From assembly GCA_030066775.1 (NCBI GenBank), contig JASJAY010000001.1, forward strand, positions 4,612 to 68,611: a DNA stretch of 64,000 bases. Reading direction: 5' to 3'. This stretch comes from Planctomycetota bacterium (GTDB lineage: Bacteria > Planctomycetota > PLA2 > JAEUHO01). Positions 1,776 through 51,783 of the stretch are shown here, piece after piece. Under the pieces are notes generated by a model. That model searched no databases, had not been told where the DNA came from, and saw only the letters and a program-made list of their open reading frames with translations. Positions within the stretch are counted from its first letter, which is position 1. Each line of letters opens with the position of its first letter. The position numbers and the translations under genes were made by a program.

Positions 1776-3401
<1,626 letters not shown>

Positions 3402-4932: not shown

Positions 4933-5940
4933 ATGCTGCGTACGCGCACCCTGCTCGCCCTCTTCGCCCTTCTCATCGCCCTGGCGCCCGCCGCCGTTGC
5001 CGATGACGAGGTCCAGCTCGCCACCGACGAGGAGGCCAAGGAGGCCCTCGCGGTCTTCAAGAAGGAGTACAAGGCCAAGGGCCTCAAGGGCGACGACAAG
5101 CTGATGCAGCGCGACTTCGCCATGAAGAACCTGGTGAAGACGCAGCACAAGATGATCGCCGACGAGCTCGGCAAGCTCGTCAAGAAGAACGACGAGGACA
5201 TCCGCACCCTCGCCGTGATCTACCTCGGCGAGATGCGCGGCGTGCCCGGCACGGCCGGCAAGCACATCGTTGCCGCGATGAAGAAGCACAAGAAGGACAC
5301 GATCTTCCTGATGTCGGCGCTCGACGCGGTCGGCTACCTGCGCTACCTCGGCGCCGGCGACGAGATCGTGGACCTGATGAACCACAAGGACTTCGCGCTG
5401 AAGAAGTACGCCATCCGCTCGGCCGGCTGGATCCAGGACATCCGCTTGATGCCTGCGCTCTTGAAGCTGCTCGGCATCGAGGTCAAGGCGGACAAGGGTG
5501 ACTCCGGCAAGGAAAGCGACAAGGGCGACGGCGGCAAGGAGGCGGAAGTCGAAGAGGGCTACTCCTGGGACGGCGTCGAGGTCAACTACGACACCGGCAC
5601 CCCCGGCGACCACGATCAGAAGATGGCCGAGAAGATCGGCAAGGAGCAGCTCGCCAAGAACAAGGCCGCGGCCGAGGCCAAGGCCGGCAAGAGCGGCGCG
5701 ACGGGCATGGCCGGTGCCTCGACCGGCGGCGCCGGCGGCCCCCGGACGGGCGGCGGCGCGACGAGCCGCACGCTCGAGGAGCTGGCTCCCAACATCCTCA
5801 AGGCGCTCAAGAACATGACCGGCGAGGAGTTCGAGAAGGGCCGCGAGATCAAGCTCTGGCTGCGCGTGAACGGCAAGAAGATCCGCGAGCTCGAGAAGCG
5901 CTACGACCGTCGCGAGAAGGCGCAGCGCAAGGGCGCGTAG
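4933..5940 (+). CDS. secreted HEAT/ARM-like repeat protein with Lys/Gly/Asp-rich linker
   Basis: ATG 4933 within track ORF 3877..5940. Signal peptide MLRTRTLLALFALLIALAPAAVAD. Helical repeats are followed by a low-complexity KADKGDSGKESDKGDGGKE region. Confidence 0.65.
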   Translation: MLRTRTLLALFALLIALAPAAVADDEVQLATDEEAKEALAVFKKEYKAKGLKGDDKLMQRDFAMKNLVKTQHKMIADELGKLVKKNDEDIRTLAVIYLGEMRGVPGTAGKHIVAAMKKHKKDTIFLMSALDAVGYLRYLGAGDEIVDLMNHKDFALKKYAIRSAGWIQDIRLMPALLKLLGIEVKADKGDSGKESDKGDGGKEAEVEEGYSWDGVEVNYDTGTPGDHDQKMAEKIGKEQLAKNKAAAEAKAGKSGATGMAGASTGGAGGPRTGGGATSRTLEELAPNILKALKNMTGEEFEKGREIKLWLRVNGKKIRELEKRYDRREKAQRKGA

Positions 5941-5972
5941 CCTTCACACCGCACACCAGGTCCGAATTGAAG

Positions 5973-6005
5973 CAGGCCGGCATGTACGTGCCGGCCTGTT
6001 TCGTT
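5973..6005. terminator. bidirectional intrinsic-terminator-like hairpin between convergent genes
   Basis: CAGGCCGGCA (5973-5982) pairs with TGCCGGCCTG (5989-5998), followed by TTTCGTT. It sits between the stops at 5940 (+) and 6026 (-). Confidence 0.6.
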
Positions 6006-6025
6006 ATCGGGGAAGGAGCGCGCGC

Positions 6026-7030
6026 CTACTTGTCGCGATAGGGCTTGTGGCAGCGGACGCACAGGTCCTTCACGATCGCCAGCTTCTTGTCCGAGAGGTC
6101 GCGCGATGCCTCGTCACCGTCGATGTACGCCTTGACCGAGGTCTTGAGCTCCTTGACGCCCGTGACCGAATCCGCCATCCACTTGCGGTAGTCCGCGGGA
6201 CGCTTCGACGTGTCGGCCAACGCGTGCATCTGCTCGAACTGCTCGAAGAGCTTCGTCGTCTCGTTGACGGGATCGATGTCGGGGTGCGCCGCGTCGCTCT
6301 TCCAGCCGTTCTTCTTGAGCCACTTCACGTTGTCCCAGGTGCGCGTCATGTCGACCATGCCGGCGCGGAGCCCCGTGATCTCGTGCTTCGAGGGGAAGTC
6401 CCACTCGTACGCCTCGGTCTCCTTCGCCGTGGGCAGCGCGTCATTGGCGATGGACTTGTAGAGGCCGGTGTACTTGGCGGCCGTGCCGCACCACTGGCGC
6501 ATCTCGGCCAGCGCCAGCTCGCGGCTGGCGCCGTCGAGCAGGACGCGGCCCACGGCTGCGGCCGCGGGACCGCGGTGCTTGCCGTGGAAGCAGTGCACGT
6601 AGAAGGGACCCGGCAGCTCGCGGAACGTCTTCGCGATCTGCAGCATCTGCGCCTTCGACAGTCCGCCGTAGCGGATCGGCACGTGGACGTAGCGCATCCC
6701 GAGCTTCTCGGCGAGCTCGACGTTGGGCGCCTTGCCGTCCACGGAGAGGATCGTCTTCGCGCCCATCTTGGCGACGGCTTCGAGCGCCTCGTCCGTCAGC
6801 GGCTCACCGCCAGAGAGGATGTTCTCGGAGAGCTCGAAGACGTTGTGCAGGTCCTCGCGCTCGAAGGGCTCGACCTCGGGCAGCTCCGTGCGGCCGGCCC
6901 AGTCGTAAGCGGGCGTGCTGGACGCCAGCGGGGGCGGGACGGCGCCTGCCTCGGCCACCTGCTCGCTTCCGCACCCGGTCAGCGGGAGGGCCAGGAGGGC
7001 GGCGAGAGCGAGGGGAAGCGTGCGAATCAT
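6026..7030 (-). CDS. lipoprotein fusing a Cys-based (PTP/DSP-like) phosphatase domain to a cytochrome c'-like CXXCH domain
   Basis: Track ORF 6026..7153 trimmed to ATG 7030 with GGAG upstream. Lipobox LPLTGC. P-loop HCFHGKHRG fits HCX5R. The helical C-terminal roughly 130 aa end in CVRCHKPYRDK, a CXXCH placed as in class II cytochromes c. Confidence 0.7.
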   Translation of the reverse strand: MIRTLPLALAALLALPLTGCGSEQVAEAGAVPPPLASSTPAYDWAGRTELPEVEPFEREDLHNVFELSENILSGGEPLTDEALEAVAKMGAKTILSVDGKAPNVELAEKLGMRYVHVPIRYGGLSKAQMLQIAKTFRELPGPFYVHCFHGKHRGPAAAAVGRVLLDGASRELALAEMRQWCGTAAKYTGLYKSIANDALPTAKETEAYEWDFPSKHEITGLRAGMVDMTRTWDNVKWLKKNGWKSDAAHPDIDPVNETTKLFEQFEQMHALADTSKRPADYRKWMADSVTGVKELKTSVKAYIDGDEASRDLSDKKLAIVKDLCVRCHKPYRDK

Positions 7031-9880: not shown

Positions 9881-11008
9881 GTGAACGACGCCCTAGACGT
9901 CCTGAAGCGCGCCGCCGCCAAGCTCGGCTTCGAGGTCGTGGGCGTGACGTCGGCCAGGCCCGTCGAGGCGGCGCTCGCAGCACTCGAGACCTGGAGCGAG
10001 GCCGGCAACGCTGCCGCGCTTGGCTACATGACGCGCAACCCCCCGGAGCGCGCCGATCCTCGCACGTTGCTCGACGGCGTGCGCACGGTGGTCACGGTGG
10101 CCGTCAACTACCACGTCGACGTGCCCGCCTTCGAGCACGAGGCACGCTTCGGTCGCGTGGCGCGATACGCCTGGGGCCTCGACTACCACGACGTCGTGAT
10201 TCCCAGGCTGCGTCAGCTCGCTGACGAGCTCGCCGCGACCTTCGGCGGCAAGGCGCGCGCCGCCTGCGACCACTCCCCGATCCTCGAGCGCGCATTCGCC
10301 GAGCGCGCGGGCCTCGGCTTCTTCGGCAAGAACACCTGCCTGCTCCTCCCGCGCAAGGGGTCGTGGTACTTCCTCGGCGAGGTGCTCCTCGAGGCCGAGC
10401 TGCCCACGACGGACCGCGAGAGCACCGACCACTGCGGCACGTGCACCGACTGCATGCCGGCCTGTCCGACGGACGCGTTCCCCGCGCCCTACGTGCTGGA
10501 TGCACGCCGCTGCATCTCGTACCTGACCATCGAGCACAAGGGCTCCATCCCGCACGACCTGCGTCCGTTGATGGGGGCCTGGGTCTTCGGCTGCGACGAC
10601 TGCCAGGACGTCTGCCCGTTCAACCGCTTCGCCAGCGAAGCCACCTGGCCCGAACTCCATCCCGATCGCGGTGTCGGTCAACGGCTCGACCTCGCCGATG
10701 TGCTCGCCATCGAGACCGACGACGCTTTCCGCGCGCGCTTCCGGAACACCCCGCTCTTGCGTCCCAAGCGTCGGGGCTTGCTCCGGAACGCCGCGATCGC
10801 AGCACGCAACGTCGAAGCCACAGCTGCCATCCCGGCCTTGCGCGCCCGCCTCAGTGATCCAGAGCCGCTGCTTCGCGAGGCGGCCCTATGGGCGCTCGAG
10901 GGACTGACGCCGGACGAAGTCCGAAATCATGCGGATATGCTTCGATCGGACGAAGACGGGGCTGTTGTGGCCGAGGCCGCCCGGATCCTGGGTGGGGGAG
11001 CGGCCTGA
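9881..11008 (+). CDS. queG: epoxyqueuosine reductase
   Basis: GTG 9881 within track ORF 9665..11008. Two 4Fe-4S motifs (CGTCTDCMPACP, CDDCQDVCPFN). C-terminal HEAT-like repeats are typical of QueG. Confidence 0.9.
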   Translation: MNDALDVLKRAAAKLGFEVVGVTSARPVEAALAALETWSEAGNAAALGYMTRNPPERADPRTLLDGVRTVVTVAVNYHVDVPAFEHEARFGRVARYAWGLDYHDVVIPRLRQLADELAATFGGKARAACDHSPILERAFAERAGLGFFGKNTCLLLPRKGSWYFLGEVLLEAELPTTDRESTDHCGTCTDCMPACPTDAFPAPYVLDARRCISYLTIEHKGSIPHDLRPLMGAWVFGCDDCQDVCPFNRFASEATWPELHPDRGVGQRLDLADVLAIETDDAFRARFRNTPLLRPKRRGLLRNAAIAARNVEATAAIPALRARLSDPEPLLREAALWALEGLTPDEVRNHADMLRSDEDGAVVAEAARILGGGAA

Positions 11009-11077
11009 GCCGCCCTCACGGGAATCCGTCCGCCTCACGCCCCTCCTGAGTAGACTTTGCGTCCCCATCTCTAGCGT

Positions 11078-47342: not shown

Positions 47343-48734
<1,392 letters not shown>

Positions 48735-49016
48735 TCCGACCGCGACCCGTTGTGTCCGGCCATTCGAGCCCACGCGGCAAGGTTCTGTTTCGAGATGCGG
48801 GCTAGGTGAAATTACGCAAAACGCGTGTAAGCACGCGGTCTGTGGAAACCCCATGGAGAAGCCTGCGGAGTCGCGTGGGCATTTGCGTTCCCACCAAGTG
48901 TTCCTGGGTTCCCAAAGTCGGAACCCCAACGCGCGAACGAGGTTGTGTGCACTGTGCACGAGCAATCCACAATTTGGGTGGGGTGTGTCGTGCTCACATG
49001 AGTCGCGTGCGCATTG

Positions 49017-49033
49017 TGCACAAGCGAAGTGCA
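49017..49033 (+). promoter_or_regulatory. candidate enhancer (UAS): TGCAC-N7-GTGCA inverted repeat
   Basis: TGCACAAGCGAAGTGCA is a perfect 5+5 inverted repeat with the 17-bp geometry of NtrC-type sites. It lies about 90 bp upstream of the -24 element. Nearby are tandem GTGCAC hexamers (48947-48952, 48954-48959) and AAGTGCR copies (49027, 49044, 49093). An A7 tract (49088-49094) sits between the UAS and the promoter. Confidence 0.45.
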
Positions 49034-49113
49034 TCGGGGCGCAAAGTGCGTGAAAACGTGGTTAACGGTCGATTGGCGGCCGCTCTCAAAAAAAGTGCGA
49101 AGTGGAGGAGCAT

Positions 49114-49129
49114 TGGTCCAGCCGTTGCT
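49114..49129 (+). promoter_or_regulatory. candidate sigma-54 (-24/-12) promoter
   Basis: TGGTCCAGCCGTTGCT has GG at 49115-49116 and GC at 49127-49128, the exact spacing of TGGCACG-N4-TTGCW. The -12 box TTGCT matches consensus. The -24 flank TGGTCC is imperfect. Confidence 0.55.
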
Positions 49130-49139
49130 CTCTACCTCC

Positions 49140-50437
49140 CGTCCGAAACGGACAACGATCTTTGACAGCACTGGCGATCGGACGAGACGACTAGTTGTGC
49201 ACCGATGAGTGGCGGTGCCGGGCAGCGGGCCCGGGATCTGCTGCTGCGCAACGGCGGGAAGTCGTGGATCGAGCGCACTTGTCAGACCCGACGCGCGCTG
49301 ACGAAGCGAAGGGGCAGCAATGTCCTGGAGCGGAAGCGGAGCGCGGACGTGATGACAAGGCGGAGCTGGTGGCAACACCGGCGCCCGGCGTGAACCACAT
49401 CCAATTCGTTGGCCTTCCTTTCCGCCGTAGCGGACGGAGCATCGTCTGCTGAAAGGTGAGAAACCTCACGAGAGCTGGGGGTCCGGAGACGGACCACCCG
49501 ACTCGCTCGAGCCCGAGACCCTGAGACCCGGATGGATAGGGACGTCACCCCATCCAAGGGTGCGAGGGGAGGCTCCGCGACCAAAGCGCGGGCCAGGTCG
49601 AGCGGGAGCACGCTCTGGAGAGGAACGGAACCTCAAGACGGGATCGGCGGCCGGAGCCGACGGGGGCTTGCCCCTGGACGCCCCGGTGCTGAACGGACTC
49701 GCCGCGGGAACAAGGCCCTGAAGGCGACTGCCGGCTAAAGCTCCACACCTCCGGGTGGCGGGGCGGCAGCTGGCGGCAACGGCAAGAGGGCAGGGACTCC
49801 GAGAGGAGCACCCATCGCGGTCGAGGGGAACCCCGTGAAGAGTGAAGCCCATGGGCGCTCCAGCGCGCTTGACGTGCTGGGAGGCGTGCGGTGCCGAAAG
49901 GTGCCGGGGGCCGCAAGGCCTAGTGGTGTACGCCGCGAAGGAGGTAGCCAAACCTCGCACGTGGCACGCGACGGCGGAGGGATCCGCCGTCATGACGCGG
50001 GACCACCGCGCTGACACTGTGCCGTAGGGCAGACAAAGTCCAGGAGAGGAAGCGAGGCTCCGAGCCCGGAGCGTGGCGCAAGCCGCGTGAACGGGGACGG
50101 GTCACGCCGACTCGCGAATGTCGTCCTCTGAAGGGGCGCGAAAGCGCATGGAGGGTCGCTCGAAGGCTTCGGCCGACGGGCAGCTCCACGATCGAAGACC
50201 CGAAGGGCGTTGAACGTCGAACGGGTAGGGCGGAACCCATAGCCGTCCTAGAGCGTGGAGCGTGTGTCCTCGAAGTGCCGCGGAACCCCATGAGAGGCAG
50301 CGAAGCCGGGCCGCAAGGTCCGGGGGAGCAGACACTGCGACTCGAAAACCTCTGGAGGACCGGAACAACTGGTCATCGACTCCGTCGTCAGGCTTCATCG
50401 GCCCGGGGCGTGGGCAACCACGCTCCGGGCTCTTTTC
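49140..50437 (+). ncRNA. candidate large structured RNA of unknown family (boundaries approximate)
   Basis: No credible ORF in the interval. Perfect helices are capped by GAGA (49480-49495), CTTG (49663-49674), GCAA (49909-49920), GCAA (50072-50087), GAAA (50136-50147), TTCG (50165-50174) and GCAA (50306-50323). The 3' end is terminator-like. The 5' end is inferred from the sigma-54 promoter. Confidence 0.4.
50401..50437 (+). terminator. intrinsic-terminator-like hairpin at the end of the candidate RNA
   Basis: GCCCGGGGCGTGG-GCAA-CCACGCTCCGGGC forms a 13-bp stem with one G-T pair, followed by TCTTTTC. Confidence 0.5.
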
Positions 50438-50506
50438 AATTGTGGACGCATCCGAGATCGAAACGCGCATGGATGCGGTACCGATGGGTGAGCACCATTG
50501 GCGATA

Positions 50507-50536
50507 GGGCGCCCACAAGGGGCGCCCCCTACTACC
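50507..50536. repeat. 30-nt palindromic element, left copy of an inverted pair
   Basis: GGGCGCCCACAAGGGGCGCCCCCTACTACC contains the local hairpin GGGCGCCC-ACAAG-GGGCGCCC. It is the reverse complement of 50634-50663 at 28 of 30 positions. Confidence 0.7.
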
Positions 50537-50633
50537 ACATGTCATCGCGGTGGGGGGCACCACGCCGACGTCCAACGCGCCGATCGTCGTGAACGGCACG
50601 ACACACTTTCGTCGGCCATGCGTGATCGCGGGC

Positions 50634-50663
50634 GGTAGTAGGGGGCGGCCCTTGTGGCCGCCC
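50634..50663. repeat. 30-nt palindromic element, right copy of an inverted pair
   Basis: GGTAGTAGGGGGCGGCCCTTGTGGCCGCCC contains the local hairpin GGGCGGCC-CTTGT-GGCCGCCC. Confidence 0.7.
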
Positions 50664-50751
50664 TGGCGCCATGGGTGGCCTGCAACCCCGGGTTCCCATA
50701 CGCGTTTCGTCGGGTTGATGTTCGATCCACAGTGGCGTGGATCAACGCGCC

Positions 50752-51783
50752 CTACACGATGCCGAGGTCTTCGGACTCGTCCTTGTAGGCGCGACGCATG
50801 AGGGAGGTGACGACCTCGAGGGGCTCCTTGCCCTCGTTGATGACGAGGTACATCTCCTCGGTGATCGGACCCACGAGACCGTGCTTGTGGATGAGATCGC
50901 GGATTGCGCCCACGCTCTTCGCACCCTCGGCGACCTGCTGCATGCTGGCCATGATGTCCGTGACCTGCTCGCCGCGTCCGATGCGCTCGCCGAAGGTGCG
51001 GTTGCGGCTGGCCTTCGAGTAGCAGGTCGTCATCAGGTCGCCCAGACCGCTGAGTCCGAAGAAGGTCTCGCGCTTGCCGCCGAGCGCGACGCCGAGTCGC
51101 GCCATCTCGAGCAGCCCGCGGGAGACCAACGCCGCCTTCGCGTTGACCCCCAGGCGCATGCCGTCGCACATGCCGGCCGCCAGCGCGATGACGTTCTTGA
51201 GCACGCCGCCGAGCTCGACGCCGATGAGGTCGGGATTCGAGTAGGCGCGGAACGCATCGCCGGAGAGCGTCGCCTGGATGCGTCGCGAGAGATCGAGCGA
51301 GGCGCTCGACACGACCGTGGCCGCCGGCTTGCCCTCCGCAATCTCGCGCGCGATGTTCGGACCGGACAGGACCGCGATCGTGTGCTTCGGTCCGGCCACC
51401 TCCGCGAGCACCTGGGTCGGACGCATCAGCGTGCCCTGCTCGAGGCCCTTCGAGACGCTCACGATCGGCAGGTCCTCGGGGACGCTCTGCGCATGCTGCG
51501 CCCACACGTCGCGCAGGAACGTGGTGGGCACCGCCGAGATCAGCAGGTCCGCGCCGTCGACCAGGTCGGTGAAGCGGCTGCAGACCCGCACACCCTCGGG
51601 TAGGTCGAAGCCGGGGAGGTAGCGCGGGTTGTGCCGGCTCTCCTCCATCAGCGCCGCGTAGTGCGCGTCGTACGACCAGATCGCGACGTCGTGGCCCGCA
51701 GCGCGGAGCAGCATCGCCAGCGCGGTGCCCCAGCCGCCGTCGCCCACGACCACGATCTTCTCGAACGGTTGGACGGCGTTCAC
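50752..51783 (-). CDS. gpsA: NAD(P)H-dependent glycerol-3-phosphate dehydrogenase
   Basis: Track ORF 50752..51912 trimmed to GTG 51783 after GGGGAGGG. Rossmann motif VVVGDGGWGTALA. Full-length GpsA-like sequence (GPNIAREIA, LKNVIALAAGM). Confidence 0.9.
   Translation of the reverse strand: MNAVQPFEKIVVVGDGGWGTALAMLLRAAGHDVAIWSYDAHYAALMEESRHNPRYLPGFDLPEGVRVCSRFTDLVDGADLLISAVPTTFLRDVWAQHAQSVPEDLPIVSVSKGLEQGTLMRPTQVLAEVAGPKHTIAVLSGPNIAREIAEGKPAATVVSSASLDLSRRIQATLSGDAFRAYSNPDLIGVELGGVLKNVIALAAGMCDGMRLGVNAKAALVSRGLLEMARLGVALGGKRETFFGLSGLGDLMTTCYSKASRNRTFGERIGRGEQVTDIMASMQQVAEGAKSVGAIRDLIHKHGLVGPITEEMYLVINEGKEPLEVVTSLMRRAYKDESEDLGIV

Follow-up and report, generated by a model that had tools for sequence, protein, structure and literature searches.

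Two GTAG-tagged REP hairpins form a probable tail-to-tail heterodimer downstream of gpsA in a Planctomycetota bacterium

An inverted pair of hairpins was analyzed in a 64,000-nt stretch of DNA from a Planctomycetota bacterium (GenBank assembly GCA_030066775.1, contig JASJAY010000001.1, positions 4,612 to 68,611 of the forward strand), which as a whole is called the window below. The pair is located at 50507–50663, in a convergent spacer between the terminator of a structured-RNA gene (50400–50431) and the stop codon of gpsA. With a probability of roughly 80%, the pair represents two GTAG-tagged repetitive extragenic palindromic (REP) elements, arranged as a tail-to-tail (TT) heterodimer within an imperfect palindrome of ~291 nt that was inserted at this site in this lineage. 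The pair is real but ordinary, REPs being already a known kind of small mobile DNA, and the structured RNA next to it is the more unusual feature. Loci used for comparison are referred to by numbers with the prefix L.

Anatomy of the pair and its assignment to the REP class

The left arm (50507–50536, GGGCGCCCACAAGGGGCGCCCCCTACTACC) and the reverse complement of the right arm (50634–50663) match at 28 of 30 positions and are spaced 97 nt apart, as had been claimed in an earlier reading made from the sequence alone. No match of this level was obtained in any of 100 dinucleotide-preserving shuffles of the window. Both arms contain a perfect hairpin with an 8-bp stem (8/8 Watson–Crick pairs), a 5-nt loop, and the foot GGGC, and the single-stranded DNA folds were calculated at −11.9 to −12.0 kcal/mol for the left and −11.9 kcal/mol for the right arm (z = −3.7 to −4.5). 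The two mismatches between the arms affect stem positions 6 and 16, the partners of a single base pair, and C:G in one hairpin is exchanged for G:C in the other. The sequence-only reading had described both the hairpins and this compensatory swap accurately. The small hairpins it had reported in the spacer were also found (CCGACG at 50565–50570 with CGTCGG at 50610–50615, and GTCGTG at 50586–50591 with CACGAC at 50597–50602), all of them short; the whole 97-nt spacer has no significant palindromy (z = −0.3 for its inner halves).

Two further features had not been mentioned there. Each hairpin has a GTAG tag that is 1 nt away from its foot and points to the spacer, being read as GTAG at 50638–50641 (+) and as CTAC at 50529–50532 (+), that is, GTAG on the minus strand. 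Moreover, the inverted symmetry reaches beyond the arms and relates 50441–50536 to 50634–50731, yielding an imperfect palindromic block of ~291 nt (50441–50731) with ~66 nt of outer flank per side. The inverted alignment of the outer flanks had a z-score of 6.6, and none of 2000 shuffles was equally good. The 30-nt cores are 93% identical (28/30) vs ~56% for the flanking arms (P ~8e-6), which indicates a constraint on tag plus hairpin. When folded as RNA, region 50480–50700 pairs both arms (−131.7 kcal/mol, z = −5.65), and the fold of the region is strong on either strand (−129 to −132 kcal/mol, z about −5.7 and −6.0). The block consists of the following parts:

50441–50506, no strand: outer left flank of the block, pairing imperfectly with 50664–50731 (local alignment of one half-block against the reverse complement of the other, ~65% identity).
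50507–50527, minus strand: left REP hairpin, GGGCGCCC-ACAAG-GGGCGCCC on the plus strand and GTAG-G-GGGCGCCC-CTTGT-GGGCGCCC on the minus strand.
50529–50536, minus strand: left REP tag, CTACTACC on the plus strand, in which the GTAG motif occurs twice with overlap, 1 and 4 nt from the foot.
50537–50633, no strand: spacer between the GTAG ends, 97 nt, with small local hairpins.
50634–50641, plus strand: right REP tag, GGTAGTAG, with GTAG at 50635–50638 and 50638–50641, the latter 1 nt from the foot.
50643–50663, plus strand: right REP hairpin, GGGCGGCC-CTTGT-GGCCGCCC, found as an exact hairpin in at least 75 family instances.
50664–50731, no strand: outer right flank of the block, pairing imperfectly with 50441–50506.

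A REP is a GC-rich stem-loop preceded by GTAG (PMC8266576, PMC3733652). In operational terms, a fully paired, GC-footed stem of 7–20 bp with a loop of 2–5 nt has GTAG or GTGG on its 5′ side at a distance of 0–2 nt (PMC6006769), and both window hairpins conform to this rule in tag (GTAG 1 nt from the foot), stem, and loop. The pair is extragenic, lying 88 nt beyond the gpsA stop and, seen from the convergent RNA gene, beyond its terminator; REPs favour positions that separate genes in convergent or co-directional arrangement (PMC3733652). Dimers with the GTAG ends inside are classified as TT, and their spacers are variable (20–100 bp) and sometimes carry small stem-loops (PMC3733652). Since the stems of the two units differ, the pair corresponds to what Di Nocera et al. 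(2013) name a "TT heterodimer".

The architecture of inverted REPs and a spacer, able to form one long hairpin, is also that of a REPIN (a REP doublet). Of the earlier REP/REPIN-type assignment, the REP part stood, as the hairpins agree with the definition and belong to a multi-copy family linked to REP-associated tyrosine transposases (RAYTs), whereas "REPIN-like" fits the architecture only. A second copy of the doublet, its spacer, or its flanks was found neither in the window, nor in the metagenomes of the Joint Genome Institute (JGI), nor among the family loci described below (at least 119). A text search of the literature with the hairpin sequences gave chance matches only, and these sequences are absent from the supplements of PMC3733652. 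Rfam searches at gathering and permissive thresholds over the window, region 48700–50800, and the relatives returned nothing relevant; the pair is in no described RNA family.

The hairpin family in other genomes

One genome per species was scanned for GGGCGSCCACAAGGGSCGCCC, with both S positions left free, and at least 119 stretches of eight kilobases were matched. The counts in this and the next two paragraphs apply among the matches listed. The taxa named there are Acidobacteriota, Chloroflexota/Dehalococcoidia, Alphaproteobacteria, Planctomycetota, Bacteroidota (Saprospiraceae, Prevotellaceae), and Clostridiales/Flavonifractor, and single metagenome-assembled genomes often hold several loci of the hairpin family. 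CTAC (GTAG on the other strand) follows the hairpin in 103/132 instances.

The two free positions are complementary in 130 of the 132 instances (75 G/C, 55 C/G) and mismatched in 2. As these positions were free in the search, it is the local hairpin that is conserved. Sister hairpins near the matches have the same GGG...CCC foot and CTTGT loop, with the self-complementary middles GGGCAACC, GGGCGACC, GGGCGGGG, and GGGCAGGC. In the 64 family members with other stems, pairs 5–8 are GC, AT, or CG and are Watson–Crick at 83–88%. Inverted neighbours within 150 nt of each other nearly always join different stems (40/41 pairs), and the GGGCGCCC/GGGCGGCC combination of the window is also present in L032, L035, L039, and L110. 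The compensatory swap is a family-wide rule and no peculiarity of this locus. The proposal that local hairpins are preserved rather than the long duplex was borne out by both the 130/132 complementary instances and the 40/41 pairs with different stems.

With respect to geometry, pairs with GTAG outward numbered 62 in the fetched family loci vs 32 with GTAG inward, the arrangement seen in the window. The GTAG-inward pairs elsewhere include some with 106–138 nt between the tags.

A tagged 25-mer, GGGCGSCCACAAGGGSCGCCCCTAC, was also found in 35 stretches of predicted viral contigs (IMG/VR, L128–L162). One of these contigs (L151, 10,995 nt) has inverted copies of the tagged 25-mer ~100 nt from both ends.

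In five of the stretches, a Y1 transposase gene is located beside the hairpins. With a score of 81.9 bits against a cutoff of 80, the open reading frame (ORF) 4219–4725 of L002 passes the NCBIfam model NF047646, "REP-associated tyrosine transposase", and it also matches Pfam Y1_Tnp; its homologues in L118, L070, L051, and L041 are 34–41% identical to it. All five RAYT genes are flanked by arrays of the REPs, and three of them contain REPs, which are translated to peptides like VGAPLVGA:

L118, ORF 5806–6387: REPs at 6053 and 6160.
L041, ORF 1–330: REPs at 35 and 115.
L070, ORF 1773–2315: REP at 2047.

The possibility that the window spacer is a deleted REPtron, i.e., a remnant of a RAYT gene between its REPs, was considered and is not favoured: at the five RAYT loci, the nearest REPs to the left and right of the gene mostly share one orientation and do not surround it tail-to-tail, and the 97-nt spacer has no match among the at least 119 family loci.

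From the transposase linkage of the family, we infer that the units may be mobilised by a RAYT in this genome. In single-stranded DNA, each 21-nt unit would fold into the hairpin with 8 bp and a 5-nt loop. Judging from the family, a RAYT (TnpA-REP, an HUH/Y1 enzyme) would recognise it by the loop and the intact stem and would require the adjacent GTAG for cleavage and strand transfer, whereby units could be excised, copied, and inserted. In a short-REP system, recognition by the transposase depends on the loop sequence and on a stem without breaks, and cleavage depends on GTAG (PMC8266576). Selection would thus act on each hairpin together with its tag, which would explain why the arms differ solely by a compensatory pair. 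Two different stems could in addition keep the long duplex imperfect and protect it from nucleases that cut palindromes, such as SbcCD; according to a proposal in PMC3733652, heterodimers evade the SbcCD-type cleavage to which long perfect palindromes are subject.

The gpsA junction and the neighbouring structured RNA

GpsA homologues assign the window to a Planctomycetota lineage that is uncultured. The G+C content of the window is 69%, and the 2 kb at 48735–50751 are devoid of a codon-position G+C signal. The genes and signals around the pair are as follows:

47343–48734, plus strand: sigma-54 activator gene (Pfam Sigma54_activat, HTH_8).
50400–50431, plus strand: conserved intrinsic terminator of the structured-RNA gene, a 14-bp stem followed by CTTTT; left boundary of the insert.
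50752–51783, minus strand: gpsA, NAD(P)H glycerol-3-phosphate dehydrogenase, stop codon at 50752–50754 (translation, Pfam, homologues).

The stretch 49113–50445, to the left of the junction, is conserved in relatives. The distance from the gpsA stop to the conserved terminator is ~12 nt in L123, ~45 nt in L124 and L125, and ~310 nt in the window. The 291-nt palindrome starts right after the T-run of the terminator, stops 20 nt short of the gpsA stop codon, and nearly fills this gap. The short gap in the three relatives (12–45 nt) indicates that the block is an insertion in this lineage. The terminator itself is kept in L122–L125 with compensatory changes, e.g., CGTGG/CCACG vs CACGG/CCGTG.

In a fourth relative, L122, the gap at the same junction is ~300 nt and is filled by an unrelated 26-nt inverted pair (10877–10902 and 11043–11068, 96% complementary, 140 nt apart, without a GTAG tag), each arm of which includes a TCGAGCTCGA palindrome. 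This different palindromic insert suggests that the junction is a recurrent landing site for palindromic elements. No target-site duplication was found at 50441/50731, where the flanks read ...TTCAAT before the block and GTGGCG... after it; this is compatible with Y1-type transposition and proves nothing.

The closest GpsA relatives are 91–98% identical fragments on contigs of ~1.5 kb. One of them, L120 (1500–1547, compared with window 50707–50754), is 94% identical over gpsA and diverges exactly at the stop codon (TGA vs TAG). As an empty site it is uninformative, as the contig ends 45 nt past the stop and its tail matches nothing in the window. The unrelated downstream sequence means that very close strains differ in what follows gpsA.

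On the gpsA strand, the pair precedes the 50400–50431 hairpin, which places it probably within the transcribed 3′ untranslated region of gpsA. A strong fold at this point could stabilise the 3′ end of the mRNA, and the block could curb read-through antisense to the neighbouring RNA gene.

The sequence-only reading had offered paired bidirectional terminators as its alternative, i.e., hairpins evolved in place for the convergent transcripts of gpsA and the RNA gene. The location between convergent transcription units, the stability and GC-richness of both hairpins, and the strong RNA fold on either strand speak for such terminators. On neither strand, however, does a T-run follow either hairpin: the sequence after the hairpins is CCTACTACC on one strand, and TGGCGCC (right unit) and TATCGCC (left unit) on the other, and a terminator scan flags only 50400–50431 in this spacer. 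The pair is missing downstream of gpsA in L120, L121, L123, L124, and L125, and the hairpin conserved at the junction is that of 50400–50431. In other genomes, the same hairpins are clustered, occur inside ORFs, and lie beside transposase genes, none of which is terminator behaviour. The alternative was dropped on the lack of T-runs, the absence of the pair at the site in relatives, and the presence of another, conserved terminator at the junction, and it is considered extremely improbable.

The same absence from relatives could also be produced by a MITE, a miniature transposable element with inverted repeats, in which a DDE-type transposase moved the ~291-nt block via terminal inverted repeats of ~96 nt and the REP-like hairpins are incidental. 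The size of the block and its long imperfect inverted arms (50441–50536 vs 50634–50731) are those of a MITE, and L122 has another inverted-repeat pair at this site. Against this, no target-site duplication is visible at the block ends, no second copy of the arms was found in the JGI metagenomes or among the at least 119 family loci, and conservation within the arms is highest not at the termini but exactly in the GTAG-hairpin core, which belongs to the RAYT-linked family. A MITE is therefore regarded as very unlikely.

Several observations weigh against the REP-dimer reading. Beyond these two units, no copy of the hairpin element is present in the 64-kb window, and tblastn detected no RAYT-like ORF there (E ≤ 10). 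The 12 loci of related planctomycetes that were examined (81 kb) contain no family member. GTAG abuts the foot in ~96% of the family members and is 1 nt away in the window, and the window-specific variant with an extra G and a duplicated TAG, ACAAGGGSCGCCCCCTACTAC, had 0 exact matches in the JGI metagenomes. None of the at least 119 family loci has a match to the flanks or the spacer of the block, so that there is no evidence for the 291-nt block as a repeated unit.

These observations could be accounted for by a solitary relic, a single REP acquired once, inverted-duplicated by an accident of replication or repair, and now inert. There is one pair, the window yielded no RAYT, and the 81 kb of relatives contain no family member; the extra G and GTAGTAG, absent in 96% of the family, are shared by both arms, which would follow if one had been copied from the other, and the flanks have decayed to ~56% identity. 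While the flanks decayed, however, the cores remained at 28/30 with a compensatory pair (P ~8e-6), and such retention implies a continuing constraint or homogenisation by other copies. The relic is accordingly considered possible but rather unlikely.

It is doubtful, and less probable than the relic, that the pair is a single copy, gained by horizontal transfer, of a phylum-crossing REP type in a lineage otherwise without the family. The basis for this suggestion is that the hairpin, usually CTAC-tagged, is found in at least six phyla, and the 25-mer in the 35 IMG/VR contigs. REPIN–RAYT systems are generally viewed as vertically inherited. If the genome held no RAYT and no other copy, the pair would be a REP transfer between lineages caught in the act, contrary to that view, and its position would make it a natural insulator between gpsA and the sigma-54-dependent 1.3-kb structured RNA. 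The TT heterodimer of REPs inserted in this lineage remains the preferred reading of the pair.

Region 49113–50440 (+), which ends in the terminator at 50400–50431, appears to encode an undescribed large structured RNA and is a candidate for a new class of bacterial noncoding RNA. Its homologues were found at the following loci:

L123, 5021–6352: RNA homologue.
L124, 1936–2930: RNA homologue, strongest match (aligned 1930–3330).
L125, L122, L126, and L127: RNA homologues.
L163, 11616–12777: distant RNA homologue.
L165, 7155–8273: distant RNA homologue.
L166, 10244–11193: distant RNA homologue.

The nucleotide identity of the RNA is 78% to L123, L126, and L127 over 1.2–1.35 kb and 65–71% to L124, L125, and L122, with an overall range of 65–79%. 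GpsA is only 72–75% identical to that of the window in L123, L124/L125, and L122, and only 64–75% over all RNA homologues for which GpsA is known. With nhmmer, the RNA was found in L163 to L166 (E = 1e-113 to 1e-173). Other genes lie between the RNA and gpsA in L163/L164 and L166. The sigma-54 activator gene adjoins the RNA in L124, L165, and L166, being just upstream of it in the latter two.

In the RNAalifold consensus of six sequences, 377 pairs were predicted, 111 of them with compensatory double changes, and 95% of the cells were canonical; in a slid control, with partner columns shifted by 1–3, 39–43% were canonical and 11–26 pairs had double changes. The z-scores of the minimum free energy were −3.5 to −4.6. 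The RNA is rich in GNRA and UUCG loops and has invariant single-stranded blocks, e.g., CCTCTGAAGGGGCGCGAAAGCGCATGGAGGG. A coding reading of the 1.3-kb region was rejected, as substitutions lack 3-nt periodicity (111/105/104) and indels of 1–2 nt are numerous. Spurious ORFs have been placed on the RNA by gene callers in relatives. Neither the window nor the relatives gave a match for the RNA in Rfam 15, and nothing was found in a literature search.

A sigma-54-type promoter, TGGTCCAGCCGTTGCT, is located just upstream (49114–49129) and is conserved in L123 (TGGACCACTCGTTGCT) and L124 (CGGTCCACCGGTTGCT). Of the ten TGTGCAC sites in the window, five are clustered at 48946–49202, in ~250 nt around the promoter, and may be enhancer sites. 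The RNA is probably a target of the adjacent sigma-54 activator (47343–48734), whose N-terminal ~140 residues match no Pfam domain. The ~375 nt from the activator stop to the sigma-54 promoter (48735–49110) have a G+C content of ~57%, vs 69% for the window, and no ORF with a coding signal.

Comparison with known REP systems

A close likeness is to the GTAG-tagged REP dimers described by Di Nocera, De Gregorio & Rocco (2013, PMC3733652). They share with the window pair a short GC-rich stem-loop with GTAG at one end, inverted units 20–100 bp apart, the TT type, the heterodimeric composition, a variable spacer with small stem-loops, and a position that follows a coding region and separates convergent genes. 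Those families, however, have tens to thousands of copies, whereas the window has two units in 64 kb, and in the window pair the inverted symmetry also extends ~66 nt beyond each REP.

The REPINs of Pseudomonas fluorescens (Bertels & Rainey 2011, PMC3116915) likewise consist of inverted REPs and a spacer that can form one long hairpin, and they are thought to be replicated by a single-copy RAYT. A REPIN in that sense is a doublet that replicates as a unit and exists as many near-identical doublets, whereas no second copy of the window doublet was found in the window, the JGI metagenomes, or the at least 119 family loci.

In Stenotrophomonas maltophilia, the REPs of the TnpA-Sm system (Corneloup et al. 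2021, PMC8266576) resemble the window units in the perfect 8-bp stem, the short loop, and the 5′ GTAG. The requirements determined there match what is conserved in the present family, namely an invariant CTTGT loop, a covarying stem, and a conserved tag. The REPs of S. maltophilia differ in having a 3-nt loop, another sequence, and a gammaproteobacterial group 3 RAYT, and the CTTGT-loop family is known from sequence alone.

Of the TnpA-REP classes, subclass 2.4 (Quentin et al. 2018, PMC6006769) is similar in its foot of three G–C pairs, its GT[AG]G tag, its scattered distribution over phyla, and its in-frame REPs within tnpA, as in L118, L041, and L070. Its REPs are called "long" in PMC6006769, whereas those of the window and its family are perfect hairpins of 21 nt. 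The family may be placed in subclass 2.4 by resemblance only.

The pair can also be likened to the bacterial interspersed mosaic elements (BIMEs) of Escherichia coli, in which a REP and an inverted REP of different subtypes are joined across a linker in an extragenic, 3′-proximal position. E. coli REPs are longer, with bulges in the stem, and the linkers of BIMEs are defined motifs, frequently bound by IHF; no such feature was detected in the window pair.

With its GTAG tag, heterodimeric arms, and convergent-gene site, the pair is one more example of a well-described class. It also supplies an insertion/empty-site comparison for a REP dimer in Planctomycetota, and the 130/132 complementary instances demonstrate, free of ascertainment, that this REP type conserves the pairing within hairpins rather than the long duplex. 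In addition, a large structured RNA gene that had not been described before has its 3′ boundary marked by the pair and merits a study of its own.

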